Assembly (NCBI GenBank): GCA_023245895.1
Contig: JAHFJJ010000002.1
Location: forward strand, 3,348-67,347
Reading direction: 5' to 3'
Length of the DNA stretch: 64,000 nucleotides
From: Candidatus Doudnabacteria bacterium
Lineage (GTDB): Bacteria > Patescibacteriota > Doudnabacteria > UBA920
Below are positions 8,111 through 24,397 of the stretch, piece after piece; position 1 is the stretch's first letter; each line of letters begins with the position of its first letter. Position numbers and translations under genes: made by a program. The notes under the pieces are model-generated. The model was given only the letters and a program-made list of their open reading frames with translations, did not search any database and was not told the origin of the DNA.

Positions 8111-8722
8111 CTAGGTTCTTTGCTTTCTTGGATTAACTTTCAAAATTTCCTCTCTAAAATCCGCAATATCAAAATAGTGCGTGCAGGCCGGCGGCAGTTC
8201 TTTTGCCACATGGCCGGACCTGGAAAACGCAATAACAATTTTTCCCTGGCCTCTTAAAAATTTTGCCAGATATTCAAAATCACAATCGCCGGAAAATAAA
8301 ATAAAGGTATCAAAATTATCCAAGCTAAAAGTTGCGTCTACTGCTATCTCAACATCAAAATTTGCTTTGCGATGGGGCAGTTCAGGCGTATGGTCTTGGT
8401 ATTCTTTAAGTGGTTTGGTTTCTAGCTTAAATTTTAAACTTTTTTTGAGAAAATATAAAAATTTCGTGTGGGATTCGGTATTAAACGCGGCTGAATAAAA
8501 GCTAACTTTTTGGCAATCTCCGGAACTTTTAAAGAAAGTGTTGAATTTTTGATAATCTACATTCCATCGGAGCAGTCCTGACTCCATATGCTTTAGGCTG
8601 TCCGGAATATCTTTTGGATTTACCCACATATCCTGAACCGACCTTTCTAAGTTCGCGGCATCTATATAAACAACAACCCGGCCTTTAAGCACCTGTTTTA
8701 ATTTTTCTACGTAGGTGTTCAT
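8111..8722 (-). CDS. NYN-domain (LabA-like) protein
   Basis: Has VVVYIDAANL...FDVEIAVDA...FILFSGDCDF, the conserved Asp triad pattern of PIN-like NYN domains. Confidence 0.7.
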   Translation of the reverse strand: MNTYVEKLKQVLKGRVVVYIDAANLERSVQDMWVNPKDIPDSLKHMESGLLRWNVDYQKFNTFFKSSGDCQKVSFYSAAFNTESHTKFLYFLKKSLKFKLETKPLKEYQDHTPELPHRKANFDVEIAVDATFSLDNFDTFILFSGDCDFEYLAKFLRGQGKIVIAFSRSGHVAKELPPACTHYFDIADFREEILKVNPRKQRT

Positions 8723-11075: not shown

Positions 11076-11140
11076 ATGCTATTATACTTAAATTTTTTAA
11101 TTTTCGGTACTTCGTTAAGTTTACTATGTATATCTCATTT

Positions 11141-11947
11141 TTAAAACTTTTTTGATTCAGGGATTTTAGAAGCGGCAATGCCTTGGTCTCGTTCTGGCAT
11201 TACCAATTCCAAACCCTCATCACCTATTTTAATTTCTTGAGCGGCTAAAATTTTCAAGCTCCTTGCAAGTTTAATAAAATTAAACCAATCATCAGCGTCT
11301 CTATATTCCCCAAGTTTCCTCTTCATTTTTTTCCAGGTTTTTTGGTCCGGTTGACAGTCAATTGGTACGCTTAAAAGTTTAATACGCGCCGCGAATTCAA
11401 CATACTCTTCCAGGTTCGAGGTTCGCTTTTCTTCCAATTCCATTTTCATGCCTTCAATCACCCGCTTATCTATACCCAGTTCCGCATCGGGTTTGAACAA
11501 CTTTAAACTCCCCGCCTCATAAGCAAAGTTCCAAAATTTATTGGCTGAACGAAGCGCCTGATTTTTGGACCTTTTTATGCTTCTTACTCCTGCGGCTACG
11601 GCTTTTTTTATAATCTCCTGGTCTGCGCTTATTTTAAGCACCCTTAAACAAGCTAAAAAACCTACATTTTCATAGGAACCGAAATCGGTGGTGGATTTTT
11701 GTTTTAACATTGCTTCTAATCCCCGGCGCCAGCTGTCGGTTAATTGGAATTTAATATTGGGATCCAGAATTTTTAAACTTAGCATATGATCTACGCTACC
11801 TGAGCTTTGGGAAAATGATTGCATTGCCCGCCAGTCTTCCTGCGTGACTTCAGTAGCGGTGTCAAAAGTTCCCGCAGGCCTTTCCTGCTCAACGCTGAAA
11901 TTTTTTATATTCAGTTCTTCCGCCGGAATTCGCGTTTCAATAGCCAT
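11141..11947 (-). CDS. tandem-array paralog 13 (most distal) of the 'M-A/S-I-E-x-R-I ... K-x-F' family
   Basis: 268 aa. Starts MAIETRIPAEELNIKNF and ends KIPESKKF. Confidence 0.8.
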   Translation of the reverse strand: MAIETRIPAEELNIKNFSVEQERPAGTFDTATEVTQEDWRAMQSFSQSSGSVDHMLSLKILDPNIKFQLTDSWRRGLEAMLKQKSTTDFGSYENVGFLACLRVLKISADQEIIKKAVAAGVRSIKRSKNQALRSANKFWNFAYEAGSLKLFKPDAELGIDKRVIEGMKMELEEKRTSNLEEYVEFAARIKLLSVPIDCQPDQKTWKKMKRKLGEYRDADDWFNFIKLARSLKILAAQEIKIGDEGLELVMPERDQGIAASKIPESKKF

Positions 11948-11951
11948 AAAA

Positions 11952-12815
11952 TTAAAACTTTTTTACTTCGGGCAGATCTTGGGTTTTAGCCCCAACTTTA
12001 GGCTCAGGCATTTTTATTTTTAAACCCGCTTCCGTAACCCTAACCTCCTCGGCCGCAAGAATACCTGCATCGGCAATAAGCACAACAGCCTCTCTTATAT
12101 TCCCGTCGCGCAGGTAATCGCTGATTGTCGTTCTAATCCCATCCCAGGCTTTGGCCGTTACCCTTATTTCTTTTAGTACATCGGGCGCGCCGACTTTTAA
12201 CAGCATTGCGTAATTAGTAAAATTAGCCCACTCCTCCGCCTGGCCGTAATCTTTTACAGACTGCACCATTTCCAAATCCGGGTCAAGGACTTCTTCCCGC
12301 AGGTCCAAAGGCATTTTATTTGGGTACAGTACTTTTAGCGCAATTTGTGTTTCAATTTGGTTCGCCGATGTGTCGAGGCTATTTTCTTTAGCCATTTCCC
12401 ATAAACCTTCGCCGTCTATGCCGTATTGGGAAAATTTGTCAGGCGCAAAAATTTTCAGGACAGCCGCATCCTGAACCGCATAGCCCAGTACGTCGACGTC
12501 GCATAATTCCCCATCGTCCACAAATCTAGCATAATTCTTCCAAAATTGTTTTTCCACAATTTCCTGGCATTTTTCGGCTACTTCTTTAATTTTTTCCGGG
12601 TTCATTTGCAGTAAAACGGTTAAAGCCCAGGCGGGGTAGTCTTCTGTTTCAGCATATTTTGAAGAATTATATTTTTCCAAATAATCTTTAATTTGCTTCC
12701 ACTCCTCTTCTTTGACATCGCGGATCGGATCAAATTCAACAGCCATCTCCAGCCTGTCAATGCTAAAATCCCTAATATTGAGTTCTTGGGTATTGATTCT
12801 TTCTCCGATGGCCAT
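11952..12815 (-). CDS. tandem-array paralog 12
   Basis: True start MAIGERINTQELNIRDF (ATG at 12813-12815); the ORF track extends it to 12944. Ends PEVKKF. Confidence 0.8.
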   Translation of the reverse strand: MAIGERINTQELNIRDFSIDRLEMAVEFDPIRDVKEEEWKQIKDYLEKYNSSKYAETEDYPAWALTVLLQMNPEKIKEVAEKCQEIVEKQFWKNYARFVDDGELCDVDVLGYAVQDAAVLKIFAPDKFSQYGIDGEGLWEMAKENSLDTSANQIETQIALKVLYPNKMPLDLREEVLDPDLEMVQSVKDYGQAEEWANFTNYAMLLKVGAPDVLKEIRVTAKAWDGIRTTISDYLRDGNIREAVVLIADAGILAAEEVRVTEAGLKIKMPEPKVGAKTQDLPEVKKF

Positions 12816-12816
12816 A

Positions 12817-13659
12817 TTAAAAATTTTTAGTTTTAGGAACCGGGGGCGTTTCCAGGATTTTTGGTTTTGGCTTGCTTTGCAGGTGGAGTCCCGATTGGTT
12901 AATTTCAATTTGGTCTGCTGAAATAATCGCAAGTTCACACGCAAAATCCAACTGGTCTTCAGGCGGCATGCTATGAAACTTTGTTTTTATTTCTATCCAC
13001 TCGGTTTCGTCCACAGCCTGTAAGTCAAACTTGCCAGGCAAAATAACGCGCAGGACGGCCAGTTGGCTTACCAAACTCCGCCAGGACTTTTTAGAGCGGC
13101 TTAATTTAATTGAACCTTGCAACTCCGGCAAAAAGTCTTTGGCTAATTTTAGCTTGTTGTTAGGCGTTAGGATTTTTAGGTTTTTATAGACTTCCTGGGT
13201 CAGACTGCCTGAGCCGACGCCTGCACAAAATTCAATTGCTTTATTTCTCGCGGCTAGTGGCAGTAAAAAATCCGGCATAATTTTTTTAATGGAGTATGCC
13301 GCGCGGATGAGCGTATCGGTGGTAGCGGCAGTCTCCCCGTTGGAATTTTTTTCAACCAGATATTCCCAGGTTTTTTCCAGCCCTTCTCTTAATTTCGTCA
13401 TTTGACCAGAGGACAGCCTTTTTAAAGTTTCCGCCTTCAAGAAACATAAATTGCCTAAGTTTTTTAGACGGTGGGGAACAACACTGCCTGAGGCAAGCCA
13501 GGGTAAATCTTCGGCAGCTAAATTTTCAAAAACTTTCCACTCCCGCTCGTAAATATCTTTTTTCGGGTCAAAGCCCGCGGTGTTGCCGGCTTGCTCTCTC
13601 TCGATGCTCAAACCTTTAATATTTAATTCTTCCCTAGGAATTCTATATTCAATAGGCAT
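12817..13659 (-). CDS. tandem-array paralog 11
   Basis: Starts MPIEYRIPREELNIKGL and ends PVPKTKNF. Confidence 0.8.
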   Translation of the reverse strand: MPIEYRIPREELNIKGLSIEREQAGNTAGFDPKKDIYEREWKVFENLAAEDLPWLASGSVVPHRLKNLGNLCFLKAETLKRLSSGQMTKLREGLEKTWEYLVEKNSNGETAATTDTLIRAAYSIKKIMPDFLLPLAARNKAIEFCAGVGSGSLTQEVYKNLKILTPNNKLKLAKDFLPELQGSIKLSRSKKSWRSLVSQLAVLRVILPGKFDLQAVDETEWIEIKTKFHSMPPEDQLDFACELAIISADQIEINQSGLHLQSKPKPKILETPPVPKTKNF

Positions 13660-13661
13660 AT

Positions 13662-14447
13662 TTAAAAGTTTTTAGTTTGCGGGACAGGTTGCGTGCTGGT
13701 GAGCGGCACTTGTTCTTCCGCCATAACCAATTCCAGCCCCTTGTCTGTAATTTTTACTTCTTTGGCGGCTAAAATTGACATGCTATAGGCAAGCATAAGG
13801 CTGTCAAGGTCCGTTTGGACTGTTTTTTGGAGGGTTGTTTTCATTGCTTTCCAGTCAGCTTTGCTTATTGCAGTCTTGGCAAATTCTTCCGGAAACAAAA
13901 TTTTTTCCCTGGCCGAGTAGGAAGCAAATAACCTGGGGGCGTGTAATTGTTTATCGGGCTCAAATTTCATATGCTGGAGCCACATACCGGCCTTTTCCGG
14001 AAACAGGATTTTCATATTTTTTGCCATTTCCCTGTAAGTTTGGTCCTTTTTAGCCAATCTTGTGTCGTGAAGCTTTTGAATAATCTTGCCTAAATAATTG
14101 TCCAGGTTTTTTGATTTAACCACTTCCGGCCATAATTGTTTAATGGTAGCGCCCAGTGAGGCAACGTCATACCATTGGTTTCGTCTTATGGCCTCGGAAA
14201 GGTCGCGGTCAGCCGCGTTTTTTTCTTGTTCCTGCGCGGGCAAAGCGCCGGGCTGCATGGTCCTAAGTCGGGCCAAGTAAGTATAGCCGCCTCTAGAAAG
14301 ACCATTAATAGCCAATTTAATTTTCCGCCATTGTTGCGGACTCAAATCCCGCGCGGGGTTAAACACCGCCCGGGTTTCCGCCCTATGCTCGGTGTGGAAG
14401 CTTTTAATATTCAAGTCTTGTTGTGGAATTCGTTGTTCTAAGGACAT
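13662..14447 (-). CDS. tandem-array paralog 10
   Basis: True start MSLEQRIPQQDLNIKSF; ends PVPQTKNF. Confidence 0.8.
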   Translation of the reverse strand: MSLEQRIPQQDLNIKSFHTEHRAETRAVFNPARDLSPQQWRKIKLAINGLSRGGYTYLARLRTMQPGALPAQEQEKNAADRDLSEAIRRNQWYDVASLGATIKQLWPEVVKSKNLDNYLGKIIQKLHDTRLAKKDQTYREMAKNMKILFPEKAGMWLQHMKFEPDKQLHAPRLFASYSAREKILFPEEFAKTAISKADWKAMKTTLQKTVQTDLDSLMLAYSMSILAAKEVKITDKGLELVMAEEQVPLTSTQPVPQTKNF

Positions 14448-14448
14448 A

Positions 14449-15279
14449 TTAGAAGTTTTTAATTTGGGGGATTTCTGGAGCTTTTTGCATAGTATTTTTT
14501 TCAGGCATAACAATTTCCAGGCCGTTGTCGCCAATTTTTGCTTCTTTGGCGCCAAGAATGGTCATTTCTTTTAATTTATAGCACGTGTAATAAAAGTCCC
14601 CATGAATAAGGCTGGATTCAACTGACTGCTTAAAATTTTTTTTCATCTCTTTCCAGTCGCCTGGGCCTATAACCAAGGCGTCCGGATAGCTCATTTTTAA
14701 GCTGGCGGCATCATTCCTAATAAGCTCCCAATATTTTTCCCGCTTTGCCTTTTGTGTTTTAAAATCAGCTAATATAATGTCTTTTGGTACCATATATTCT
14801 GGAGTAACTTCATCCGGAAATAGGATTTTCAAATAACAGTAAGTACGGGGAGAAAAGTTGTTTCTGATAGGGTTTAATTTTATTTTTTGCCATAAAGGGG
14901 CTAGTTTGGCTGTTAGGTTTTCAGCAGCAAAAGTTTCGGGGTCCAGCCTCTTGAGTTCAGCGGCGTCGACAAAAGGGTCGGTAATACTTTGCCCGGGCTC
15001 TTCTGCCTTTAGCAAGTCTTTTGTAAATTTTGATATTATCCTTTGCCTGCAAACTTCAGCCATATCCGGGAACAGTTCAGGATTAATCCCTTTTAAGAAT
15101 GTTAAAGTTCCTATTGGCAGTGCTTGGCTGTCGGCTGTTAAAATAAACTCTCTTAACGCCTTCCATTGCTCGGGAGTAACCTCTTCCATGGGATTAAACT
15201 CGATATTTACTCCCCGCTGTTCCAGGCTGAACTCCCTGATATTCAGTTGTTCGGTATTTATCCGTTGGTCTAAGGACAT
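14449..15279 (-). CDS. tandem-array paralog 9
   Basis: True start MSLDQRINTEQLNIREF; ends PEIPQIKNF. Confidence 0.8.
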   Translation of the reverse strand: MSLDQRINTEQLNIREFSLEQRGVNIEFNPMEEVTPEQWKALREFILTADSQALPIGTLTFLKGINPELFPDMAEVCRQRIISKFTKDLLKAEEPGQSITDPFVDAAELKRLDPETFAAENLTAKLAPLWQKIKLNPIRNNFSPRTYCYLKILFPDEVTPEYMVPKDIILADFKTQKAKREKYWELIRNDAASLKMSYPDALVIGPGDWKEMKKNFKQSVESSLIHGDFYYTCYKLKEMTILGAKEAKIGDNGLEIVMPEKNTMQKAPEIPQIKNF

Positions 15280-15280
15280 A

Positions 15281-16093
15281 TTAAAAATTTTTAATTTTTG
15301 GCAGGGTTGATTTAGTTTCGGCTTCAAAAGCCGCGGGTCGGGTTATTTCCAAACCATTTTCGGTAATCTCTATTGCAGGGGCTGTGGCAATAAGCAAGTT
15401 AAAGGCATCTCCCACAAGTTCAGAAGGATGAGTTTTGTTTTTCTTTAGGTGTTTTTTCATTGCTTGGACAAATTCTGGCCCAAGCTCGGGCTTAAACCAA
15501 GGGTCAATAGTTCTAATACAGGCGCCATATTTAAAAATATCTGAAACCGAGGAGCCTGGCCTGGCTTTTAGAGCATCAAAGTCTTCCTTAAAAATTACAT
15601 CCGGCCCCGCATCTAAGTTGGGCAGGAAAATATAATCGTTTAATTGCAAACCGGTTATTTTCATATCGGCAAAAACTTGCATACTGTAGAAAGGGGCGTC
15701 GCTTTTCAGAAATTTATCTATTGAGTTAACTTCTTTCGCCGTAAAATTAAATTCATAGTTTATTGGCTTTAAAATTTTTAGTGCCGCTAGCGTATCGAAA
15801 AATTGATCCCAATGCTCTAACATCCTGCTTTCTCTCACTACCGCCATAGTTCTCTCTTCCCATTCAGGGTCGAAGTTAATTGCGATTGCCGGATTTAAGA
15901 GCTTTATTTTAGAAGCAATCCGGGCGGAGTCATCGGGCTTAAATTCTTTATTTTCCTCCATTACCTGCAAAAGATCGTCCCACTGCTCAGCACTAATATC
16001 CCGCTCTGGGTCAAAGCTCTCGTTATTCCACTCCTGAAAATTAAAGTCTTTAATATTTAGTTGTTCGGTATTTATTCGTTTGTCTAAGGACAT
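15281..16093 (-). CDS. tandem-array paralog 8
   Basis: Starts MSLDKRINTEQLNIKDF and ends LPKIKNF. Confidence 0.8.
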   Translation of the reverse strand: MSLDKRINTEQLNIKDFNFQEWNNESFDPERDISAEQWDDLLQVMEENKEFKPDDSARIASKIKLLNPAIAINFDPEWEERTMAVVRESRMLEHWDQFFDTLAALKILKPINYEFNFTAKEVNSIDKFLKSDAPFYSMQVFADMKITGLQLNDYIFLPNLDAGPDVIFKEDFDALKARPGSSVSDIFKYGACIRTIDPWFKPELGPEFVQAMKKHLKKNKTHPSELVGDAFNLLIATAPAIEITENGLEITRPAAFEAETKSTLPKIKNF

Positions 16094-16094
16094 A

Positions 16095-16886
16095 TTAAAA
16101 AGTTTTAAATTGCGGGAGAGCGCCGGCAGGCTCAGCCAGCTCGCCCGAGGAAATGGTTAATTCCAGGCCATTGTCTGTTATTTTTATTTCCTCGGCCGAA
16201 ATTATGCCCATATAGTAGGCCAGTTTAATGGCCCTTAAATAATCACGGCTGTTTTGGCGCTTTTCAAAAAGAATTTGGAATTCGTATTTCATTTTTTTCC
16301 AGTTTTCTTTGGACACAGGGGCTTTTTTAAATTTTTCCGGCGCGACAATTTTTTGGCTGGCCTTAAAGCCGGCGTAGGTTTCGGCAAATTGGTATTCAGG
16401 TTCGGTATTAAGCTCTGGAATTTTAAATTTTTCTGCTTTGTCCGGAAACAGTATGGTTAATTCCCTGGCCATTTGTATCCTATTGACTTCGCCAAACTTT
16501 CCTTCCAAAGCCAGCGCCAGTTGGTCCAAATCACCTTCAAGGCCTATGGCTTTAAACTCTTTTGGATAAAGCTGCTTCATCGCAAGCGCTATTTTTGGCA
16601 CTGCCCGCCAGTTGTCTTTGGCCATCAAAGCCTCTAGTTCGTCGCTAACAACCGACTTGGTGGAAGGCTTGTCTACTATTTTGTATAAACAGCCCGGCCT
16701 TATAGTCCTTAGTTCCGCCAAAGCCGTCCAGGACAAATGGGTATTCATAAAACTTTCAATAATTTTCCATTGCTCGGGCGTAATATCCCTGTTTAAATTA
16801 AACTCCTGGGGTGCCTCCTGGACGCCAAGGTTTAGGTCCTTTATATTTAAATCTTCTGAATCTAATACGCGGTTTTCAATAGCCAT
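16095..16886 (-). CDS. tandem-array paralog 7
   Basis: Starts MAIENRVLDSEDLNIKDL and ends ALPQFKTF. Internal repeats include AMKQLYPKEF and LTILFPDKAEKF. Confidence 0.8.
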   Translation of the reverse strand: MAIENRVLDSEDLNIKDLNLGVQEAPQEFNLNRDITPEQWKIIESFMNTHLSWTALAELRTIRPGCLYKIVDKPSTKSVVSDELEALMAKDNWRAVPKIALAMKQLYPKEFKAIGLEGDLDQLALALEGKFGEVNRIQMARELTILFPDKAEKFKIPELNTEPEYQFAETYAGFKASQKIVAPEKFKKAPVSKENWKKMKYEFQILFEKRQNSRDYLRAIKLAYYMGIISAEEIKITDNGLELTISSGELAEPAGALPQFKTF

Positions 16887-16888
16887 AG

Positions 16889-17731
16889 TTAGAAATTTTT
16901 AATTTTCGGAATTGCCGGCGTTGCCTGGCTTATTTGGGCGTTGTTTGACAGCTCCATGCCGTGGTTTGTAAATTTCACCTCTTTGGCCGCCATAGTAGCC
17001 AGCCATTCGGCTAAGTTTATATACTGTAAACAGTCATGGCCGCTTTGGCAATTGTCTAATTTTTCAAAAAGTTGGGTTTTCATAGCTTCCCAGTTTTTTG
17101 CGGTAATTTTTACTTTCGCGAATTCTTCCGGAAACAAAATTTTCAACAGGGCCGCGCTTTTGCAAAACATATACCAATTGCCGCCTTTATTTTGCGCCAT
17201 ATCTTGTTTCAATAGCGAAACGTCGTTGTCCTTCAACAGGTCTTTTTCTTGGCCAGGGAAAAGAATTTTAAAATAAAGAACGTTGTCTAAATCTACTGTA
17301 CCCCGGCCTGTTATTTTAGGCTTCCTTAAGGCTTCGGCCATTCGTTCGCGATATTGCTCGGCCAATGCTTGCGAAAACCTTTCCGGAAATAAGGTTTTCA
17401 TTTCGGCAAAATTACCAAGCAAATTATCATAGCCCATTTCTCCCCGCTCGCAATGGCGTAAAATGGTTTTGGCGAATTTATCCATCTTCTGCCATTTTTT
17501 ATTGTCAGATTTTTCAAATAGTCTTTTTGGTTCAATCACCTGCAAACTTGCCAAATAAAGGTCAACATTTTCTTTTCGCGCAGACCGTTCCATTTTATCC
17601 CATTGCGCTTTGCTCAAATCCCTTACCGGATCAAAAGGTACATCCTTAGAAGACTCCGCCGAGGGCAACTGCTCCAGGTTTAACGAGCTAATATTCAATT
17701 CTGCCGGGTTAACCCGCTGTTCTATGGACAT
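16889..17731 (-). CDS. tandem-array paralog 6
   Basis: True start MSIEQRVNPAELNISSL; ends PAIPKIKNF. Confidence 0.8.
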   Translation of the reverse strand: MSIEQRVNPAELNISSLNLEQLPSAESSKDVPFDPVRDLSKAQWDKMERSARKENVDLYLASLQVIEPKRLFEKSDNKKWQKMDKFAKTILRHCERGEMGYDNLLGNFAEMKTLFPERFSQALAEQYRERMAEALRKPKITGRGTVDLDNVLYFKILFPGQEKDLLKDNDVSLLKQDMAQNKGGNWYMFCKSAALLKILFPEEFAKVKITAKNWEAMKTQLFEKLDNCQSGHDCLQYINLAEWLATMAAKEVKFTNHGMELSNNAQISQATPAIPKIKNF

Positions 17732-17732
17732 A

Positions 17733-18530
17733 TTAAAATTTTTTAATTTCAGGAATACGCGAACCAAGTTCCGGTAATTTTTGTACTGCCGGCGACAGTT
17801 CCAGTCCCCTATTCGTAAATTTCAGCTCGCTCGCGGAAATAATAGCCATGTCCCTGGCCAAAGTTATGGCTTTGTCTAAATTCGTGCCTTTTAATTCCGC
17901 GCGCAAGTCTTGTTGCATTCCTTTCCAGGCATTGTCGCCGATGTTTTGAATATTAAAACGTCCAGGAAATAAAATCCGTAATGTGGCCATATCTACAGCT
18001 AAGCTTGGCCAATTTTTGAGTTTTTTTGAAAGACCAATGTTTAGGGTAATAGCAGTAAAATCTTCTTCGTTTACTTCCACTCTTTCAGGCAGCAACCTTT
18101 TCATTCGAGTAGCAAGGTCAAAATAAAGAGCGTCATTCCAATGCCTTAACGCAATGTTTTCCAAGTCCTCGCGGGCAATAAATTTTTCCCACTGGTCAGG
18201 CCATAACTGCCTAATTGACGCGGCGACATCCAAAAAAACCAGCTGGGCTTGAACGTGATTTACTTCCTTTACTCTCCTGGAAATCTGCTCGCTTAGTTCC
18301 GGGTTGGTTGCCGGATTGGGGAGGTTGGGAAAGCTTTCAGGCCTTATTAAGCGCAAATCCGCAATTCTTTCCCAGACATGGTAAGTTTGCTCTACTTCCT
18401 TCGCGTCTGCTTCCATGCGCCGCCAGTCGTCGGGTTTAATATCAAATTCCAGCAAGCCTTTTTCCGGAGTCTGGATATTAAAGTTCTTTATATTCAATTC
18501 TGCCGGGTTAACCAGCTGTTCTATGGACAT
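17733..18530 (-). CDS. tandem-array paralog 5
   Basis: Starts MSIEQLVNPAELNIKNF and ends RIPEIKKF. Confidence 0.8.
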   Translation of the reverse strand: MSIEQLVNPAELNIKNFNIQTPEKGLLEFDIKPDDWRRMEADAKEVEQTYHVWERIADLRLIRPESFPNLPNPATNPELSEQISRRVKEVNHVQAQLVFLDVAASIRQLWPDQWEKFIAREDLENIALRHWNDALYFDLATRMKRLLPERVEVNEEDFTAITLNIGLSKKLKNWPSLAVDMATLRILFPGRFNIQNIGDNAWKGMQQDLRAELKGTNLDKAITLARDMAIISASELKFTNRGLELSPAVQKLPELGSRIPEIKKF

Positions 18531-18531
18531 A

Positions 18532-19365
18532 TTAAAAATTTTTAATTTCGGGCGTCGGTGGAGTCGCGGTTTCTGATTGTTTTTTTGGCATCACCAACTC
18601 CAAGCCCTGCTCTGTAATTTTAATTTCCTGGGCGGCTATCATTGCAAGGTCGCGGATCATGCCGGCTTGGTCCACGCTTTTAGTCTTTCCCTGGGCCAAT
18701 AAAAACTTTAAATGACTTCGCCAAATTTCCCAGGTTTGGCAATCAACTTTTAACTTTTTGGCGTCATCCGGAAGCAAAGCCTTAAAGGCCGCAAAATACG
18801 CGAGTTTTAAGCTAAAATCATCAGCCATAACCTGTTGCAAGGGTTCATTTATAGGTTCTCCTTTTGCCAGAGTTTCCAACCAGGGATCTGTGGGTATTTT
18901 ATCTAAACTGAGTTCACCCGCCCGGTCGGGAAACAGAACCCTCATATCAATTAAAAATCCCGGACCTACGTCGCCTGATGCCAGCTGCTCATTTCCTTTA
19001 CGCCACAGTTTCGGGGCGGTTCTAAAAGTTAGCGGTTCAAATTTATCCGGAAAAAGTTGCTTAAACCCCGCGTATTCCGTAACCACGGAATACCAAAGGT
19101 TTTCGTCAATTAACCCTTGAATCCTCCTTTTAAAAATATCACCCTCCGGCACCGGAATATGGGTAAACTTATCCGGCCGTACTTGCCGAAGCACAGCCAG
19201 CATGCCATAAAAGGCGGGATTGTCAGATATGGTTTGGCTTAAAAGTTCCCAATCCCTTTCGCTCACGTCCCGCTTAGGATCAAATTCAACGCCGGCCTGC
19301 GGCTGTTCCAGGTTCAGTTCTTTTATATTCAATTCTTGCCGATCAATCCGTTTTTCTATGGACAT
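18532..19365 (-). CDS. tandem-array paralog 4
   Basis: True start MSIEKRIDRQELNIKEL; ends PTPEIKNF. Confidence 0.8.
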   Translation of the reverse strand: MSIEKRIDRQELNIKELNLEQPQAGVEFDPKRDVSERDWELLSQTISDNPAFYGMLAVLRQVRPDKFTHIPVPEGDIFKRRIQGLIDENLWYSVVTEYAGFKQLFPDKFEPLTFRTAPKLWRKGNEQLASGDVGPGFLIDMRVLFPDRAGELSLDKIPTDPWLETLAKGEPINEPLQQVMADDFSLKLAYFAAFKALLPDDAKKLKVDCQTWEIWRSHLKFLLAQGKTKSVDQAGMIRDLAMIAAQEIKITEQGLELVMPKKQSETATPPTPEIKNF

Positions 19366-19366
19366 A

Positions 19367-20203
19367 TTAAAAATGTTTAGCTTCCGGCAGCGGCGAGTCC
19401 GCTGTGAAATTTGTTTCCGGTAAAATAATAACTCCGCGTTCATCAATATGTGCGTCCGGGCAGGATAAAATTTTTAAATAACTTCCGACCCTCATCAGTT
19501 CGTAGGGAGCCCCCTGTTCTAGCCAAAATTTTTTAATGCCGCTCCAGTCTCGCGCTTTAATTAGGGGTTTTACATCCGGAGCCATTAACTTTAACGCTAC
19601 TGCTTTGGCTAAATCCGCACTTAAATGGAATTTTGAGTTGGGTGTTATAGCGAAAGATGTTTTTTTCATCTCCTCTATGGCTTTTTCCATAACTTGAGTC
19701 CATCGCATGCCTTTTAAATGCTGGGGAAAAACTTGCACCGCTTCCAAATGCTCATAGGGAAACGCAAGCGAACTTTCAATGCGGTCGTCAACCAGCTTCC
19801 AGTTCTCTTCCGAATTCCACTTTTTCCAAACATCGGTCCGCTCAGGAAACAGCCTTTTATATGCAGACGCGATACCTAAAAATTGCTGTACAGAAGGGCG
19901 GCTGCCTGTAGTCAGAGGCATTTCATTTGCCGCGGCTTCAAGAGCGCTGGCTAATTTTTCTGAAACTTGCGCATCGGGAAACAAAAATTTATAATTCGCC
20001 AAATAATCGGGCTTTTGCCCGAAAGCCGGCCTGCCTTCTTCCCAGTCACCGCTTATCCTAAGAAAGTTTTGCAGGCAGACCTCTCTGGTATTTTTTGGAA
20101 TTTCAACCTCGGGGTTAAATTTAAACCCGTCCACAGGCTCCTGTTCAAAGCTCAGCTCCTGGACTTTTAATTCGTTCGGGTCAATGCGTTTTTCAATGGC
20201 CAT
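19367..20203 (-). CDS. tandem-array paralog 3
   Basis: Starts MAIEKRIDPNELKVQEL and ends PLPEAKHF. Confidence 0.8.
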   Translation of the reverse strand: MAIEKRIDPNELKVQELSFEQEPVDGFKFNPEVEIPKNTREVCLQNFLRISGDWEEGRPAFGQKPDYLANYKFLFPDAQVSEKLASALEAAANEMPLTTGSRPSVQQFLGIASAYKRLFPERTDVWKKWNSEENWKLVDDRIESSLAFPYEHLEAVQVFPQHLKGMRWTQVMEKAIEEMKKTSFAITPNSKFHLSADLAKAVALKLMAPDVKPLIKARDWSGIKKFWLEQGAPYELMRVGSYLKILSCPDAHIDERGVIILPETNFTADSPLPEAKHF

Positions 20204-20204
20204 A

Positions 20205-21011
20205 TTAAAAATGTTTAGTTTCCGGAGGGCCGGTTTTGTTGTCAGTCTGCATTTCTGTTAAATTGCCCAACTCCAGGCCATTGTTTGTAACTTTTACTGT
20301 AGAAGCCGAGGCAATAACTGCGTTTACCGCATTTTCTGAAACCGGGAAAAGATCTGTTAATTCTGTCCCTGCCTTTAGTACTCCTTTTATAGCTTGGAAG
20401 TGTTTGGGTGTTAATTCAGGGTCAAAATTAGGTTTAACAATTCTCATACTGGCGGCGAAGCGGAATAGTTTTTCAATGGGCGCCTTCTCTTTCATTTCAG
20501 CCATGGTGGCTTCCAAAACACCCCAAAACTCCGGCGTAAGATATTTGTCCATAGGCAGGCCAATAATTTTTATTTCCGCTAAATGCAGCAATTGATAATA
20601 AGGTTCCATATTCGGGTCTGTCAGGAACACTTCTATAGACTCCGCTTCTTCCTGGCTGAATACAAATTTTTTTGAAGGCTGTAGAATCTTGATTGCTAAA
20701 GCTAGCGGTAAAAAGTCGCCCCACTCTTCGTCTTTTTTGTCAGTTTGTAATTCGTTTTCAATTTTAGTAAATTCTTCAGTCTCGATTTTTGGAGCTTCGT
20801 TTGGATACAAGATTTTGAGGTTTGCAGACATTAACGCGACATAATATCTACTACTTCCAGCCCTATAAGATTCTAAATCTCTAAACAAGCCCTGTTTTTG
20901 GCTTTGACTGAAGTCTCTTTTTGGATTAAAAAGGAAAGGCTGTTGCTTTTCGTTGAGGCTCAGTTCTTTGATATTCAGCCCTTCTTGGCTTATTCGTTTT
21001 CCAATAGGCAT
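20205..21011 (-). CDS. tandem-array paralog 2
   Basis: True start MPIGKRISQEGLNIKEL; ends GPPETKHF. Confidence 0.8.
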   Translation of the reverse strand: MPIGKRISQEGLNIKELSLNEKQQPFLFNPKRDFSQSQKQGLFRDLESYRAGSSRYYVALMSANLKILYPNEAPKIETEEFTKIENELQTDKKDEEWGDFLPLALAIKILQPSKKFVFSQEEAESIEVFLTDPNMEPYYQLLHLAEIKIIGLPMDKYLTPEFWGVLEATMAEMKEKAPIEKLFRFAASMRIVKPNFDPELTPKHFQAIKGVLKAGTELTDLFPVSENAVNAVIASASTVKVTNNGLELGNLTEMQTDNKTGPPETKHF

Positions 21012-21012
21012 A

Positions 21013-21876
21013 TTAAAAATGTTTAATTTGTGGGGCGTCAAATTTTGGCTTTCCGATGGGTGTAACCGGCATAACAAATTTAATCCTATTGTCTTCAACC
21101 ACAATGCGTTCCGCGGCCAAAGCTTGCAAAGTTGCCGCAACATTTAAAAATGTAGTCCAATTGCCCCTCTTCCGCCATCCTTCAAGGATGTCCCTTAGTT
21201 TTTTTACAGGCGGCAATTTCCCCTGCCAATGTGCGGCAAGTTCCGGGAAAGCGTACTTAATAGCGGCGGTTCTATTGATAAGCACGGAAGTTTCGTTTAA
21301 GTGTTTTTTGTTGTCACTATATTGTTTGTAAGCCCATTCCCAGGCAGTGGCACAAAACTGTTTTGCTTCTTCCGGCAGAGGTTCGGTCGGATAACAAATT
21401 GCGAAATTTTTAATTAACTTTACACCCTCATCAATCCAGTTGGTTGTCGTGTAATACAAAACGCTTTCTTTTAAAAGCTTAAATATTTCCGGGTTTTTTA
21501 AAATTTGCGCGCAATTCTGCGGGAACAAAATTTTCATCATCATTAGAGCCTCTGCTAGTTTTCCCGGTTTGCTTTCAGTTAAGTGTTGTTCTATTATAGT
21601 TTTTAAATTTTCTTCCTTAACAAAAGTTTTATTCTCATATGGAAAGTGCAAAAGCTGCGCGGGCGCCAAATAGTAGATGCTGGCGTACAAGTCATTTTCC
21701 GCTCTGGGCGCGCCGGAAGCTTTTTTAAAACTTACCAAAGACTCCAATATCCTGGTTTTGTCTGAATCTGTTATGTCGCGATTGGCATCAAATAAAATTT
21801 CAGTACTTTGGGAGCTTTCCAAAGATAAATCCTGAATTTTTATTTCTTGCGGATCAATCCGTGTTTCTATGGCCAT
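21013..21876 (-). CDS. tandem-array paralog 1 (first after the ATPase)
   Basis: True start MAIETRIDPQEIKIQDL (ATG at 21874-21876); ends DAPQIKHF. Confidence 0.8.
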   Translation of the reverse strand: MAIETRIDPQEIKIQDLSLESSQSTEILFDANRDITDSDKTRILESLVSFKKASGAPRAENDLYASIYYLAPAQLLHFPYENKTFVKEENLKTIIEQHLTESKPGKLAEALMMMKILFPQNCAQILKNPEIFKLLKESVLYYTTTNWIDEGVKLIKNFAICYPTEPLPEEAKQFCATAWEWAYKQYSDNKKHLNETSVLINRTAAIKYAFPELAAHWQGKLPPVKKLRDILEGWRKRGNWTTFLNVAATLQALAAERIVVEDNRIKFVMPVTPIGKPKFDAPQIKHF

Positions 21877-21919
21877 AGTCTTAAAAAACAAGCCGGAGTT
21901 TCCGCTCCGGCTCGTTAGG

Positions 21920-24043
21920 TTAAAATTGCTTTGCCGCGGGCACGAATTCGGTGGTGGCAAAACCCTGCAAACCGCGGATTTGCTTTATTATTTCTTCAAA
22001 ATCTTTTTTAGTGTCTTCCGAAGCCTTTTTGCGCTCATCATAAGCTTCCTGGCCAATATAGCCCATGATTTTGTCTTTTAATTTTTCGTCATCCATAAGA
22101 ATGCCTACGCTGGTAAGCATATCCACAACCGCTTTGGGGTTTTCACTGCCTTCAAATTGCTTGTAGCTTTCCACCATCACCTGGTAAACCGCTTCGTCAA
22201 AGGACATTTTGCTTGCCTGATAGAGCGGTTTTTTGTTTTTTGCGTCGCGGTAGAGAACAAGTTTTTCCCCAAGGTCCCGGATGGTACGGTAAGAAAGCGG
22301 AATCGTCTGCCTTTTGCCTTCCAAAAAAGAGCGTATTTTAGGAAAGGCTTCGTTAATTAAGGTGTAAAGTTTTCCTAAGTCTTCTTTAGAGCGCAAGAAT
22401 GTGCCGTCGGGGTTAGCCAGCGCGGAAAGCGACACCAACATTTCCTCTTTGCGTGGCGGGTAGGGAATTTCCATAACTTTGCCTTCGGCGCGCGAAGCCA
22501 AAGCTTCCGGGACTTCAAAGACACCATGCTTGCGTTCAATGTTGGCGGTAAAATACATCCTCCAATTATCGGGAATCGGAATACGCTCATCGTTATCCGC
22601 AAAATACCAATCCTCCCCGGGTTTGGCAGTTAAAAGCCCGTAAATTAAGCTCCAGTTTTTGTTTTTGTTAAATTCGTCCATTAGCACGCTGTCCCCCCGC
22701 CTTAGGGCCGCTGTAATAACCCCGTCGCGCCAGCCGTTCTTTTTGACAATATGCGCGAACTTTTTGGCCAACTCCCCGCGGAAAGCCGCCTCGGCCATGT
22801 TTACAACTTTGGTTTGTAAGTCGCGCAATTGCGGTACATCTGCTGCCTTGGTTTTTTCAGCTGCCTGCAAAGATTCCTGTATTTGGGCTATTGCTGTAAC
22901 AGCCGCCTCGTCCGGATTGAGATGCAAAGTTTCCCCAAGGAGCTTGCTGTGTTCGGAAACAAAATCCCTAAATTTTTCAGGATCCAGTCCTCGAAGGTCA
23001 TCGCTCAGCTTATTATAGTACTCAGTTGGGTCTTTAAATTCCAAAGATTTTGAACCGTAGAGCATGTAGCGGGTTACATCTTCGGACAAATCAAGATAAA
23101 CATAATTCCTGCCTTTTTCTTCCAGGTAATGGCGGACAAGCGTGGTCTTGCCCACGCCCGGAGGCCCAACTAAAACGCCGCCGACTGTGGTGCGCTGGTG
23201 CTGGGTTTCCCATTCATGGAGCATGTTTAAAGAATGGATGACGCTTTGCGTTTCCACTACATCTTCGCCTTCTGAAAATTGTTTTAAAACAGTTTCTATT
23301 TCTTCTTTGCCGGAAAAATACCTGACCATGGGGTCTTCCCACAGTTCCTCTATTTTAGCCCTGGCCGCGGCGAGTTCTTCTTGCAGCTGCTTTTTTGAAC
23401 GCGGAAGTTTGCGCTCTTTTTGAGTTTTAAATTCTTTTAAGGCGTTTACATACTCCTCTGATTCCTCATCAAAAATAGTTTTTAGCGCCTGTTCAATATT
23501 GTTGACATCGTCAGTTTGGACTTCGTCTGAAACCGACTGGCGCTGGCTTACGGCCTCGGCGCGGGCGTAAGAAATATCATCCAGGCCTTCGGCGCTGGCA
23601 AAGCTTGCCTGCTCAAGCAAGCCTGAAAGTTGGGTCGCGGTTTTAAGGCTATTTTTAAACTCTAAATAGTCAAGCTTCGAGCGGATGTATTCCCTATAGG
23701 CTTTTTCAAAAGACAGCTTTTCTTCGTCGCCCAGCCAGCCTTCAATTTCCGTTTTTTTGGCCTTATAATGTTGGGCGGCTAAAAATCTGTCATCGGCGCT
23801 TTTTGCAGACTTAACAATGCTCCTCAAATCCTGGGCTTGTTTTATCAAGAGCTGGAATTGTTCAATAGCTTTAAGGCGCAAATCACGTTCAAGTTCCGGG
23901 ACATTTTCCAAAGCTTGCTCGCGGGCTTCCCTTAAAACCCTATTTGCTTCAGGCTGTGTTTTTGTCTTTCTGCTTTCCTTTGCGGCGGCTTTTACTTCGG
24001 GCACTTCCCCACCCAAATGACGCGGCAATAGACGTTCGGGCAT
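21920..24043 (-). CDS. AAA+ ATPase (MoxR/AAA_5-like core with a long coiled-coil N-terminal region), first gene of the operon
   Basis: 707 aa. Walker A is GPPGVGKT and Walker B is DSVLMDEFNK, the DE-x-N-R/K signature of the MoxR/dynein-related clade. About 160 aa are inserted between the two Walker motifs. The C-terminus ends ...VPAAKQF, a K-x-F tail like that of the downstream paralogs. Confidence 0.8.
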   Translation of the reverse strand: MPERLLPRHLGGEVPEVKAAAKESRKTKTQPEANRVLREAREQALENVPELERDLRLKAIEQFQLLIKQAQDLRSIVKSAKSADDRFLAAQHYKAKKTEIEGWLGDEEKLSFEKAYREYIRSKLDYLEFKNSLKTATQLSGLLEQASFASAEGLDDISYARAEAVSQRQSVSDEVQTDDVNNIEQALKTIFDEESEEYVNALKEFKTQKERKLPRSKKQLQEELAAARAKIEELWEDPMVRYFSGKEEIETVLKQFSEGEDVVETQSVIHSLNMLHEWETQHQRTTVGGVLVGPPGVGKTTLVRHYLEEKGRNYVYLDLSEDVTRYMLYGSKSLEFKDPTEYYNKLSDDLRGLDPEKFRDFVSEHSKLLGETLHLNPDEAAVTAIAQIQESLQAAEKTKAADVPQLRDLQTKVVNMAEAAFRGELAKKFAHIVKKNGWRDGVITAALRRGDSVLMDEFNKNKNWSLIYGLLTAKPGEDWYFADNDERIPIPDNWRMYFTANIERKHGVFEVPEALASRAEGKVMEIPYPPRKEEMLVSLSALANPDGTFLRSKEDLGKLYTLINEAFPKIRSFLEGKRQTIPLSYRTIRDLGEKLVLYRDAKNKKPLYQASKMSFDEAVYQVMVESYKQFEGSENPKAVVDMLTSVGILMDDEKLKDKIMGYIGQEAYDERKKASEDTKKDFEEIIKQIRGLQGFATTEFVPAAKQF

Positions 24044-24261
24044 ATATTTTGGTTAATTTAAAGTTGGTTTCTTTTGTTGATTTTAGGCTAAAACACCCTT
24101 TAATTATAATATAAATTTTGTTATTTTGCAAAAAGGCTTTTATTATAGGCAATCCGAGCTTATTCCCTTAAAGTAAAAAATTGATTTCAGCCCACAAACA
24201 CAATGGGCTGCGCTAAGCGCAGCCCGAATTCAAGCCTTAAAATCTTCTTCTTGTAGTATTA

Positions 24262-24337
24262 TGGAGCCCAAGTGCGGAATTGAACCGCAGACCTTCTCCT
24301 TACCATGGAGATGCTCTACCAACTGAGCTACTTGGGC
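24262..24337 (-). tRNA. tRNA-Thr (anticodon GGU)
   Basis: Reverse complement reads GCCCAAGTAGCTCAGTTGGTAGAGCATCTCCATGGTAAGGAGAAGGTCTGCGGTTCAATTCCGCACTTGGGCTCCA. A TATAAT sits 7 nt upstream. Confidence 0.85.
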
Positions 24338-24355
24338 GTGTATTATAGAAACAAT

Positions 24356-24387
24356 TTCCGCCAAAGGCGGATCCGCCTTTGGCGGAA
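24356..24387. repeat. perfect 32-bp GC-clamp palindrome ttccgccaaaggcggatccgcctttggcggaa (double hairpin); a likely terminator between the TPR gene and tRNA-Thr
   Basis: Perfect inverted repeat centred on GATC. A near copy lies at 1346..1376. Confidence 0.65.
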
Positions 24388-24397
24388 ACAGGCAGAA

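Follow-up and report, generated by a model that had tools for sequence, protein, structure and literature searches.

Thirteen tandem helical-repeat paralogs with shared terminal peptides between MoxR-type ATPase and VWA genes in a Candidatus Doudnabacteria bacterium

Why would an ultra-small CPR (Patescibacteria) bacterium encode, side by side, thirteen versions of one protein that agree at their ends and vary in between? The question is raised by a stretch of 64,000 nucleotides from a Candidatus Doudnabacteria bacterium (the window, hereafter), in which a first-pass annotation made from the sequence alone had described thirteen tandem paralogs with conserved termini and a variable, repetitive core. 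Our analysis bears out the thirteen: they are minus-strand genes running from 21876 down to 11141, they encode proteins of 261-287 aa that are homologous over their full length, and they are separated by junctions of 1-4 nt, most commonly of the form TAA-T-ATG (Table 1). The end of the array had been placed at 21960, a value that goes back to a TTG farther upstream in the open reading frame of par01; the true end is 21876, and the added stretch runs into the 3' end of the AAA+ gene.

Table 1. Coordinates of the features of the operon (positions in the window)
Feature	Position	Strand	Description
Promoter-like site TTGCAA-17-TATAAT	24103..24132	-	consensus match only; ~60 nt upstream of AAA+ start codon
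MoxR-type AAA+ ATPase	21920..24043	-	707 aa; Pfam AAA_5 43.5 bits (cut-off 22 bits), E 4e-11
Spacer, AAA+ stop to par01 start	21877..21919	-	strong hairpin then U-run
par01	21013..21876	-	287 aa; divergent member; tail PQIKHF
par02	20205..21011	-	268 aa; tail PETKHF
par03	19367..20203	-	278 aa; most divergent of array; tail PEAKHF
par04	18532..19365	-	277 aa; modelled member; predicted helical repeats 30-244, beta-hairpin 247-258, disordered tails
par05	17733..18530	-	265 aa; identical to P0001
par06	16889..17731	-	280 aa
par07	16095..16886	-	263 aa; tail PQFKTF
par08	15281..16093	-	270 aa
par09	14449..15279	-	276 aa
par10	13662..14447	-	261 aa
par11	12817..13659	-	280 aa
par12	11952..12815	-	287 aa
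par13	11141..11947	-	268 aa; last member; tail PESKKF
VWA partner	8958..11075	-	705 aa; Pfam VWA E 4.5e-12

The contrast between ends and middle is real. Mean pairwise identity among the 13 paralogs is 37% in the N-terminal part and 34% in the C-terminal part vs 17% in the core, it rises to 63.5% over the last six residues, and M1, one Phe and the P/K/F of the tail are invariant. The motifs that had been said to occur in every paralog, however, hold for most of them rather than all: IKIQ (par01) and LKVQ (par03) replace LNIK in the N-terminal motif, the P.RD...W element lacks P.RD in par05 and its Trp in par01 to par03, and GLEL.MPE is present in about 8 of the 13. Nor is the conservation confined to overlapping stop and start nucleotides, because the conserved residues use different synonymous codons, and the termini are thus under selection at the protein level. 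The tail is also retained in places that lack a paralog start directly behind it: in par13, at the end of the AAA+ gene and at a further locus, L002 (spacers of about 10 nt).

As to the core, degenerate repeats of about 40 aa and an alpha-solenoid-like fold had been anticipated, and both are confirmed here. A 42-aa repeat HMM trained on family members from outside the window detected 23 repeats (iE<0.01) in the 13 proteins vs 0 in 20 shuffles, and the AlphaFold2 model of par04 (pLDDT 79.5, pTM 0.78) predicts all-alpha repeats followed by a C-terminal beta-hairpin. Residues 1-23 and about 260-277 are disordered in this model, and predicted disorder of the terminal peptides is what would be expected of short linear motifs. 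No significant repeat-profile or close structural match to TPR, Sel1, HEAT, PPR or ankyrin was found for the core. The proteins range in pI from 4.55 to 9.63, and neither a signal peptide nor a transmembrane segment was seen in any of them, the maximum 19-residue hydropathy being at most 1.38 and the N-termini hydrophilic. They belong to a family of about 1,770 representative sequences for which a search of the Pfam, NCBIfam, PADLOC, PHROG and PDB libraries gave no match; in Pfam, neither the array proteins nor their canonical relatives hit any family, and no viral copies of the family were found.

On the same strand, an AAA_5 ATPase gene precedes the thirteen paralogs and a VWA gene follows them, and the neighbours of this operon are housekeeping genes. 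The operon probably starts at the promoter-like site, which stands after terminators flanking tRNA-Thr. The hairpin between the ATPase gene and par01 (dG -21.8 kcal/mol, z -5.2, equally stable in 0 of 200 shuffles) looks, with its U-run, like a terminator or attenuator, and it might uncouple expression of the array from that of the ATPase gene. The ATPase is placed by its sequence in the AAA_5 (MoxR/CbbQ/GvpN/NorQ) clade; it has the Walker A motif GPPGVGKTT, the Walker B motif DEFNK, an N-terminal extension of about 280 aa and a partial match to GvpN (E 7.7e-8, below the GvpN cut-off), and several of its 70 homologues (31-61% identity) are named MoxR-like ATPase by JGI. The VWA partner consists of an N-terminal HExxHH domain, a Lys/Glu/Gly-rich linker, a C-terminal VWA domain and a basic tail. 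Its MIDAS is intact (D509-x-S-x-S, T594, D623), with D509, S511, S513, T594 and D623 invariant in a 4-genome alignment, and the HExxHH motif (H119-E-A-F-H-H) is kept in 52 of 52 homologues. The model of the N-terminal domain (pLDDT 87.5) matches the zincin fold weakly; the HExxHH motif could confer a catalytic role on this protein that goes beyond the docking model developed below.

The arrangement recurs widely. Same-strand arrays of the family, of 1 to at least 25 copies, were found at 21 loci in genomes and metagenomes, including Ca. Staskawiczbacteria, Parcubacteria MAGs and Ca. Daviesbacteria, and the AAA+ gene, the VWA gene or both are present in nearly all of these loci of at least 10 kb. 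The two genes share an operon in the window and at L002, L004, L006, L007, L009, L010 and L012, and even the loci of the most distant ATPase homologues (31-38% identity) retain the AAA+ gene, the VWA gene and one family member. The homologue lists of the ATPase and of the VWA protein have contigs of the same size in common (e.g. 19586, 722779, 95292), which is a further pointer to their linkage. The operon takes up about 15 kb in the window, and the arrays of L018 at least 20.8 kb of a 765-kb contig. No description of it was found in the literature searched.

The ATPase and the array proteins are also connected by their last residues, since the C-terminus of the former, VPAAKQF, carries the P-x-x-K-x-F tail of the latter. 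A [KR]x[FY] ending is present in 122 of the 137 representatives of the family, in 33 of the 70 homologues of the ATPase and in 11 of 53 homologues of the VWA partner, whose basic C-terminal tail is itself conserved; roughly half of the ATPases and the majority of family members have the fuller form P-x-x-[KR]-x-[FY]. Within a genome, variants of the tail change together (RQF vs KQF at L011, RPERK vs RPERK at L004, RPVRS vs RP[VI]RS at L010, RKF vs RKF at L008), and in P0161 the ATPase and a family protein are fused in frame on one contig. Natural two-module fusions of family proteins lack the internal N-strand and the internal tail; therefore the tags act as end-tags of each polypeptide and not as connectors. 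Not every tail ends with a free carboxylate on its aromatic residue, as some L018 members extend two residues beyond the Tyr. Also counting against a docking role are L007 and L015, where the array proteins are tailed and the ATPase is not, and L005, where a 931-aa two-module relative has neither AAA+ nor VWA gene nearby.

The sequences between the tags change quickly. Compared between the window and L006, the ATPases share 61% identity and the VWA proteins 58%, whereas the cores of the array proteins reach only 22-28% in the best cross-genome pairs, and no 1:1 orthologues were found across genomes; array proteins thus evolve far faster than the ATPase. Together with the range of copy numbers, these figures support the diversification that had been suspected.

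The explanation we favor, which taken as a whole seems to us about evenly poised between right and wrong, is that the array proteins are cytoplasmic members, of about 270 aa each, of a large uncharacterised CPR family, each with about five helical-hairpin repeats of 42 aa, a beta-hairpin that closes them off and terminal peptides that are disordered; that ATPase, array and VWA genes form one conserved three-part operon; and that the array supplies a MoxR/VWA remodelling machine with a diversified set of clients or adaptors, which would attach to it through docking peptides at their termini. The analysis establishes membership of the family, the repeats, selection on the ends of the proteins, linkage of the genes, the shared and co-varying tails and the fast divergence of the cores; docking is what we infer, as are what the tags would bind and what the repertoire would recognise. 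The conserved peptides would couple every paralog to the one machine, with the extreme C-terminal [LIV]-P-x-x-[KR]-x-[FY] docking most likely on the AAA+ ring; the ATPase would bear a docking tail as well, and the VWA protein its basic one. The VWA MIDAS, for its part, may bind the acidic N-terminal segment (L-x-L-E-E-P-E ... F-D-P-E-R-D). The variable cores may then be a fast-evolving, genome-specific set of interchangeable clients or target-binding adaptors, which the machine would load, remodel or release by putative ATP-dependent client remodelling, for which the shared and co-varying tails are indirect evidence. Of the roles suggested in the first-pass annotation (effector, immunity or client), that of client fits the genomic context, which the annotation had not drawn on: the array lies between MoxR-type AAA+ and VWA/MIDAS genes, this linkage extends over CPR loci, and the ATPase is tailed. 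Nothing was found in support of the other two: the array proteins lack signal peptides and transmembrane segments, neither toxin nor partner genes were seen, PADLOC and PHROG gave no match, and viral copies did not turn up.

A C-terminal aromatic motif, HbYX, is shared by a proteasome-activator ATPase and unrelated non-ATPases, which dock through it on the same receptor. It may serve here as an analogy only, as the motif is [KR]x[FY] and not hydrophobic-Tyr-X, there is no proteasome, and the receptor is hypothetical. Closer to hand, the ATPase clade, a VWA domain with complete MIDAS and their linkage match the trio, at the level of sequence, to the MoxR-type AAA+/VWA kind (CbbQO, NorQD, RavA-ViaA). 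CbbQO recognises Rubisco through the VWA MIDAS, which engages an acidic residue, and through a position-critical motif at the extreme C-terminus (PMC4660213), and the putative clients here likewise combine an acidic N-segment that hardly varies with [KR]x[FY] at the very C-terminus. However, CbbQ-CbbO serves a single metabolic client, Rubisco, where our operon encodes its own, as 1 to at least 25 fast-evolving helical-repeat proteins; unlike CbbQ, the ATPase has its long N-extension, about 150 aa from Walker A to B (a position estimate) and the client tail; and unlike CbbO, the VWA partner has an invariant HExxHH domain. NorQ-NorD, the metal-insertion chaperone of nitric oxide reductase, also pairs a MoxR hexamer with a VWA partner; the C-terminus of NorD docks on the NorQ ring (PMC13036017), and the CPR partner also ends in a conserved basic tail, but NorQ-NorD has one respiratory client, no array and no tail common to ATPase and client. 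The vWA-MoxR-VMAP ternary conflict systems (Kaur, Burroughs, Iyer, Aravind 2020; PMC7159879) share the three-gene logic of MoxR ATPase, vWA protein and variable third protein, whose diversification was proposed to serve recognition. They show enrichment in multicellular bacteria; the multicellularity test of that paper left CPR organisms out, as such information was nonexistent for them (PMC7159879). Here the third component is instead a tandem array of tail-tagged helical-repeat proteins, in which Pfam revealed no VMAP, effector-associated, peptidase or STAND domains and PADLOC gave no match.

It is possible, if unlikely, that the array provides an NTPase-based conflict system, anti-phage or anti-host, with a repertoire of diversifying sensors. 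Each paralog would sense an invader protein of its own, and its tags would relay the signal to the HExxH domain and the MoxR/VWA pair. The locus resembles the ternary systems of multicellular bacteria, MoxR and vWA modules are known to regulate conflict systems (PMC7159879), and the fast-evolving cores, the variable copy number without 1:1 orthologues and the broad spread of pI are in keeping with such a role. The invariant HExxHH could be an effector peptidase, although the match of its domain to the zincin fold is weak. No VMAP, effector-associated or death-type domain and no PADLOC match was found, however, among the array and VWA proteins scanned, and an operon amid housekeeping genes, with ATPase and VWA proteins well conserved in distant CPR lineages, is unlike patchy defence islands. 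Furthermore, no two paralogs found at any locus are more than 55% identical, which gives no hint of recent duplication in an arms race.

CPR bacteria are commonly regarded as dependent on host cells, and the paralogs might be effectors that an episymbiotic cell exports or injects into its host, with the termini as secretion signals and the AAA+/VWA pair as a dedicated unfoldase or loader. Conserved disordered termini on variable proteins do look like secretion signals, and arrays such as those of L018 occupy a sizeable share of tiny genomes. We consider this even less likely, given that the array proteins lack a Sec signal or transmembrane segment, that no conserved membrane channel, pilus, secretion or injection genes adjoin the trio at the loci examined, and that the same tail on the ATPase and on some VWA partners is hard to square with an export signal; MoxR ATPases, moreover, are not known to drive secretion. 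Distinctly unlikely is a heteropolymer (coat, filament or compartment), assembled or disassembled by a GvpN-like ATPase, in which the N-terminal strand (I-N-I-K-x-L) of one subunit would join the C-terminal beta-hairpin of the next. The N-segment alternates like a beta-strand and finds no place in the monomer model, at whose end a hairpin lies exposed; the paralogs are numerous and their connectors uniform, and the partial match to the gas-vesicle protein GvpN points the same way; on the other hand, orthologous subunits are lacking across genomes with such different copy numbers, the ATPase shares the tail, and fusions that drop the internal strand and tail mark these as end-tags. Orphan immunity clusters, too, are typically tandem arrays of diverged small helical proteins, but a bank of polymorphic immunity (antitoxin) proteins is very improbable here: no toxin gene and no Rhs/LXG/WXG or secretion-associated domain was found in or near the arrays (window flanks and related loci examined), the sole conserved partners are the AAA+ and VWA genes, and sharing both termini with one another and with the ATPase would be abnormal for immunity proteins.

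Returning to the repertoire of docked clients or adaptors, a bolder version of it, which we put forward tentatively, is a CPR lineage-specific "address-tagged repertoire", in which a universal terminal code would let a MoxR AAA+/HExxH-VWA machine handle hypervariable helical-repeat binders, a set specific to each genome, with an innate-immunity-like or host-recognition role in ultra-small episymbionts. The code would be the acidic N-peptide plus the [KR]x[FY] C-tail. Its logic would be like that of variable-receptor arrays, on the chassis of a chaperone.

CPR/Patescibacteria make up a large part of bacterial diversity; their genomes measure some 1 Mb at most, and the majority of their lineage-specific proteins are without known function. 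This operon is conserved in them from Parcubacteria to Daviesbacteria. The clients of MoxR/VWA systems are mostly unknown, and here putative ones are encoded within the operon itself; as they carry a candidate recognition code that can be mutated and is common to the ATPase, client recognition can be put directly to the test with recombinant proteins. Should the repertoire reading be true, it would represent a new route for minimal symbionts to diversify protein-binding specificities.

The array described by the first-pass annotation was recovered as thirteen consecutive minus-strand genes, par01 to par13, both in the ORF listing and upon re-annotation, while its outer boundary needed revision: the end placed at 21960 reflects an in-frame TTG upstream of the par01 start at 21876, and the additional 84 nt overlap the end of the adjoining ATPase gene. 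The encoded proteins are 261-287 aa long, with pI values between 4.55 and 9.63 and no transmembrane segment or signal peptide, and adjacent genes are separated by 1-4 nt. Upon all-vs-all BLASTP the thirteen proteins align over their full length at 22-32% identity (E-values to 6e-36), and a profile built from relatives outside the window matches every one of them, with E-values from 6.5e-21 to 1.5e-50 as computed for a nominal 1-million-sequence database. The proposed pattern of conserved ends and a diverged core is also evident in the 13-way alignment, where mean pairwise identity is 37% over the N-terminal 48 columns, 17% in the core, 34% over the C-terminal 36 columns, and 63.5% for the last six residues. 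The motifs said to occur in every paralog are correct as a consensus, but par01 and par03 carry IKIQ and LKVQ in place of LNIK, par05 has no P.RD, and par01-03 lack the tryptophan.

Conservation of the ends is exerted on the protein and is not a by-product of overlapping stop and start nucleotides. Among array genes, one and the same terminal residue is specified by several synonymous codons, both in the window and, more strikingly, in the arrays of two other genomes; at L002, a Staskawiczbacteria locus, the invariant MSFNPDRINIHEL is encoded with AAC/AAT, CCC/CCT/CCA, CGC/CGT, and ATA/ATC/ATT. Because of this variation, gene conversion and RBS constraint could be rejected as sources of the terminal conservation. 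The C-terminal tail, P-x-x-[KR]-x-[FY], is furthermore retained where no downstream start overlaps it, as in par13, the ATPase gene, and L002 (spacers of about 10 nt). The degenerate helical repeats attributed to the core have statistical support as well, in that a 42-aa repeat profile (consensus NNWDDFAELAAAMKILFPERDLELDLDDWEWMKMKLELKRNR), trained on non-window proteins only, identified 23 repeats with independent E<0.01 in the 13 paralogs and 0 in 20 shuffled sets. In the AlphaFold2 model of par04 (pLDDT 79.5, pTM 0.78), residues 30 to 244 are predicted to form helical hairpins, a beta-hairpin at 247-258 corresponds to the E-[IV]-K-[IF]-T..G-L-E-L motif, and the N-terminal (1-23) and C-terminal (about 260-277) peptides are of low confidence and presumably disordered.

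At the junctions between paralogs (21011-21013, 20203-20205, and 18530-18532, among others), TAA-T-ATG predominates, being found in nine of the 12 internal ones with no Shine-Dalgarno-like sequence upstream, and the A/T-rich tail codons (ATT AAA AAT TTT TAA) lie directly 5' of the next start codon, a layout that suggests termination-reinitiation coupling. An obvious SD is likewise missing from the nearby AAA+, NYN, and EF-Ts genes but present at S2. Downstream of par13, 65 nt separate the array from the VWA gene, and this spacer contains CCGAAAATTAAAAAATTTAAG, near-identical to the tail-plus-stop coding sequence of the array (CCG AAA ATT AAA AAT TTC TAA, that is PKIKNF and a stop), and apparently what remains of a 14th copy that was lost or truncated, or else a copied gene junction.

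Features of the operon and its immediate surroundings (window coordinates)
Feature	Position	Strand	Remarks
TPR protein gene	24398-25156		directly upstream of tRNA-Thr and operon
T-run hairpin	24354-24389		strong, G+C-rich, 16 bp
tRNA-Thr(GGT)	24262-24337		between the two T-run hairpins
T-run hairpin	24205-24225		strong, G+C-rich, 9 bp
AAA+ ATPase, 707 aa	21920-24043	minus	Pfam AAA_5 43.5 bits; Walker A GPPGVGKTT, Walker B DEFNK; directly upstream of array
ATPase extension motif	~23430-23490		about residues 185-205
Intra-operon hairpin	21877-21919	minus	between ATPase stop and par01 start; dG -21.8 kcal/mol, z -5.2
par01	21013-21876	minus
par02	20205-21011	minus
par03	19367-20203	minus
par04	18532-19365	minus
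par05	17733-18530	minus
par06	16889-17731	minus
par07	16095-16886	minus
par08	15281-16093	minus
par09	14449-15279	minus
par10	13662-14447	minus
par11	12817-13659	minus
par12	11952-12815	minus
par13	11141-11947	minus
Tail-like spacer sequence	~11085-11105	minus	between par13 and VWA gene
VWA partner, 705 aa	8958-11075	minus	VWA domain C-terminal; directly downstream of array
NYN-domain (RNase-like) gene	8111-8722		directly downstream of VWA gene

The array is flanked by the genes of a MoxR-type AAA+ ATPase, whose C-terminus (VPAAKQF) is the same P-x-x-K-x-F tail seen in the array proteins, and of a VWA partner with a complete MIDAS (D509-x-S-x-S, T594, and D623, invariant in four genomes). The N-terminal domain of the VWA partner carries an HExxHH motif invariant in 52/52 homologues; this domain had no match in Pfam, nor did the protein in PADLOC and PHROGs. 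Upstream of the ATPase gene, a promoter-like site follows the two strong terminators bracketing tRNA-Thr, and elsewhere the window has the content of an ordinary chromosome (ribosomal protein S2, EF-Ts, RF-1, PrmC, DnaE, ThrRS, CysRS, DnaB, FtsW, and four tRNAs). The tRNA genes (Trp, Thr, Tyr, Thr) are spread over 919-24337, with the whole operon inside the ~18.6 kb from tRNA-Tyr to tRNA-Thr(GGT). The hairpin preceding par01, GAGCCGGAG-CGGAAA-CTCCGGCTT followed by a U-run, is absent from the consensus terminator scan listing; it resembles an intrinsic terminator or attenuator within the operon, one that could fix the ratio of ATPase to array expression. The NYN-domain and TPR genes are not conserved beside the operon in the other loci examined. 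In the N-terminal extension of the ATPase, homologues P0158-P0202 share a recurrent ALK-[TL]-I-[YF]-[PD]-E-[DE]-S-x-E-Y motif resembling the family repeat core (A..hK-I-L-F-P-E), with two additional copies within an enlarged insert of the Daviesbacteria ATPase P0178. Homology of this ALK.IYPE segment to the family repeat was rejected: although the segment recurs at one site in orthologues, its individual E-values of 0.03-2 are not significant.

Profiles for the family, its ATPase, and its VWA partner were run against 21 loci, which showed the same components in variable number and order. The most distant ATPase homologues (31-38% identity) belong to minimal loci, in which AAA+ and VWA are accompanied by a single member (L009) or by a single member on each side (L010). 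The L018 array makes up at least 2.7% of its contig. No fourth gene is conserved in the loci examined, and the unit is therefore a trio with an expandable third part. Among neighbors, the Staskawiczbacteria operon is directly followed by a terminase-large-subunit-like gene (Pfam Terminase_6C) and a 136-aa small ORF (L002 11368-13669, minus), which hints at a prophage or mobile element beside it. In the most closely related operon a RimK-like ATP-grasp gene lies directly upstream of the ATPase (L006 2190-3389); protein C-termini are substrates modified by RimK-type ligases, which makes this gene suggestive given the tail motif, but it is not conserved at the other loci.

Gene order and terminal tags at the window and related loci
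Locus	Gene order	N-terminal tag	C-terminal tag	ATPase tail vs members
Window	AAA+, 13 members, VWA	M-x-I-E-x-R-I...E-L-N-I-K	P-x-I-K-[NKH]-F
L002	AAA+, 7 members, VWA, 1 member	MSFNPDRINIHELTIEEPE	PPIPEIKKF
L003		MGVREQLG..DDEMRLQDL	PPRPERKELN
L004				RPERK in both
L006	AAA+, 11 members, VWA
L007	AAA+, VWA, at least 9 members
L008 (Daviesbacteria)	12 members, AAA+, at least 11 members	MLESL.QTNIG.LNLEEP	PALPE[VM]RKF	SRKF vs [VM]RKF
L010				RPVRS vs RP[VI]RS
L011	3 members, AAA+, 9 members			ARQF vs [AT]KQF in 11 members
L012	AAA+, 7 members, VWA, 7 members
L017	AAA+, 10 members
L018 (Ga0080064_1000010, 764,876-bp contig)	25 members in a row, the entire 20.8-kb locus, running off both ends

The terminal peptides are nearly uniform within a genome and different between genomes. 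A [KR]x[FY] C-terminus is present in 122/137 family representatives and 33/70 ATPase homologues, and at four loci (L011, L004, L010, and L008) the ATPase tail matches the dialect of the local array; the ATPases of L007 and L015, which have no tail, are exceptions. At L018, six members in a block form a further exception, their KKY or KRY being followed by two more residues (GN, AS, AG, or GS), a tail sub-dialect inside a single array. The C-terminus of the VWA partner is a conserved basic tail (FLKREV.KRR..), and 11/53 homologues also show [KR]x[FY] there. In P0161, a 1009-aa protein from a 4.8-kb Logan contig, the ATPase is fused in frame to a complete family member, the junction taking the place of the ATPase tail and of the member's first residues; this could be genuine, providing a Rosetta-stone link, or an artefact of assembly or deletion. 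In natural two-module proteins the N-peptide is retained at the start only and the tail at the end only, which suggests one set of tags for each polypeptide rather than tags that connect modules.

Between the window and L006, identity is 61% for the ATPase and 58% for the VWA protein, but only 22-28% for the best pairs of array proteins, each of which usually finds its best match within its own genome. With neither one-to-one orthologues nor conserved order between these two arrays, a fixed hetero-oligomer can therefore be rejected. The closest paralog pair found anywhere is 55% identical, so there are no recent duplicates and synonymous sites are saturated; the sole conspecific contig differs by 1 SNP in 3,183 bp. 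The arrays thus diverge quickly and turn over with their termini held, a tempo that favours a repertoire joined to one common machine by an interface that its members share.

Such a tempo also agrees with a diversifying sensor repertoire of a conflict system, as does the MoxR-vWA theme of PMC7159879. We nonetheless consider this unlikely, in view of the absence of VMAP or effector domains, the position of the operon amid housekeeping genes, and the good conservation of the ATPase and VWA genes in distant CPR lineages. Effectors had been among the roles offered by the first-pass annotation; the paralogs, however, have neither export signals nor a linked apparatus, and share their tail with the ATPase, making export quite improbable. 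Assembly of a heteropolymer via strand-hairpin exchange is hard to reconcile with a variable copy number and with the loss of tags in fusions, and we regard it as very doubtful, while a bank of immunity proteins, also proposed earlier, is barely credible with no toxins anywhere nearby. It is instead the client role, from that same initial list, that is favored by the association with a MoxR/VWA machine, the tail shared by the ATPase, and the shared termini.

A word-indexed search of 5.8 billion proteins with a 13-sequence profile gave 2 self matches only and suggested an orphan family, a view overturned by the exhaustive profile search of 1.84 billion representatives, which yielded 1,768 proteins at E<=1e-3 and 1,182 at E<=1e-10, mostly full-length at 260-300 aa. 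Orphan calls by indexed search alone would hence be misleading for fast-evolving repeat families. Canonical members display the architecture of the window proteins more clearly, starting with an N-terminal peptide such as MSFNPDRINIHELTIEEPEK..ELPFDVERDITKEDW, followed by regular 42-aa repeats, MKILAAEEVKITDKGLEI, a 10-15 residue linker, and a final PPIPEIKKF. Where source records carry a name, it is Ca. Staskawiczbacteria, "Parcubacteria group" MAGs, or Ca. Daviesbacteria, and this is therefore a CPR/Patescibacteria family; the gene content of the window and its nearest relatives also point to that radiation. One two-module relative, that of L005, comes from a MAG labelled Gammaproteobacteria, a label that may be a binning error. 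Two-module proteins of 915-931 aa (P0075, and L005 8867-11662) have an unknown ~370-aa N-domain before the family modules and end in LPQWTF; the L005 gene has a WecG/TagA-family glycosyltransferase gene on one side, with mreB further upstream, and a pair of GT4 glycosyltransferase genes on the other, and neither the ATPase nor the VWA protein is encoded within 10 kb of it. The array proteins scanned had no match in Pfam, NCBIfam, PADLOC, or PHROGs, and a Pfam RsfS match on the relative P0155 was judged a spurious repeat-motif coincidence. A viral contig scan was negative, which speaks against phage origin, and no description of the operon or family was found in the literature searched.

The best-supported model, in our opinion, is that the array proteins would be clients or adaptors of the MoxR/VWA machine, addressed via their terminal peptides. 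Precise precedents come from two characterised systems: in CbbQO, inhibited Rubisco is bound via the VWA MIDAS with an acidic side chain as ligand, and NorQD has its VWA partner docked by the C-terminus on the ring of the ATPase (PMC13036017). By analogy, members, ATPase, and some VWA partners would compete through their [KR]x[FY] tails for one set of docking sites, the AAA+ ring being the simplest location. The tail of the ATPase itself could serve in auto-inhibition or assembly, and the L-x-L-E-E-P-E segment would offer a candidate MIDAS ligand in its nearly invariant Glu. The chassis has the testable hallmarks of MoxR-type AAA+/VWA systems, namely an AAA_5 ATPase, a VWA protein with MIDAS, and conserved linkage, and the third component was tested against, and assigned to none of, VMAP systems, named helical repeats, toxin/immunity, and secreted effectors. 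We class this as a MoxR/VWA system whose own operon encodes an expandable, CPR-specific repertoire of tail-tagged helical-repeat proteins. Its share of these very small genomes is substantial, and it provides an unusually direct way into how MoxR ATPases recognize their clients.
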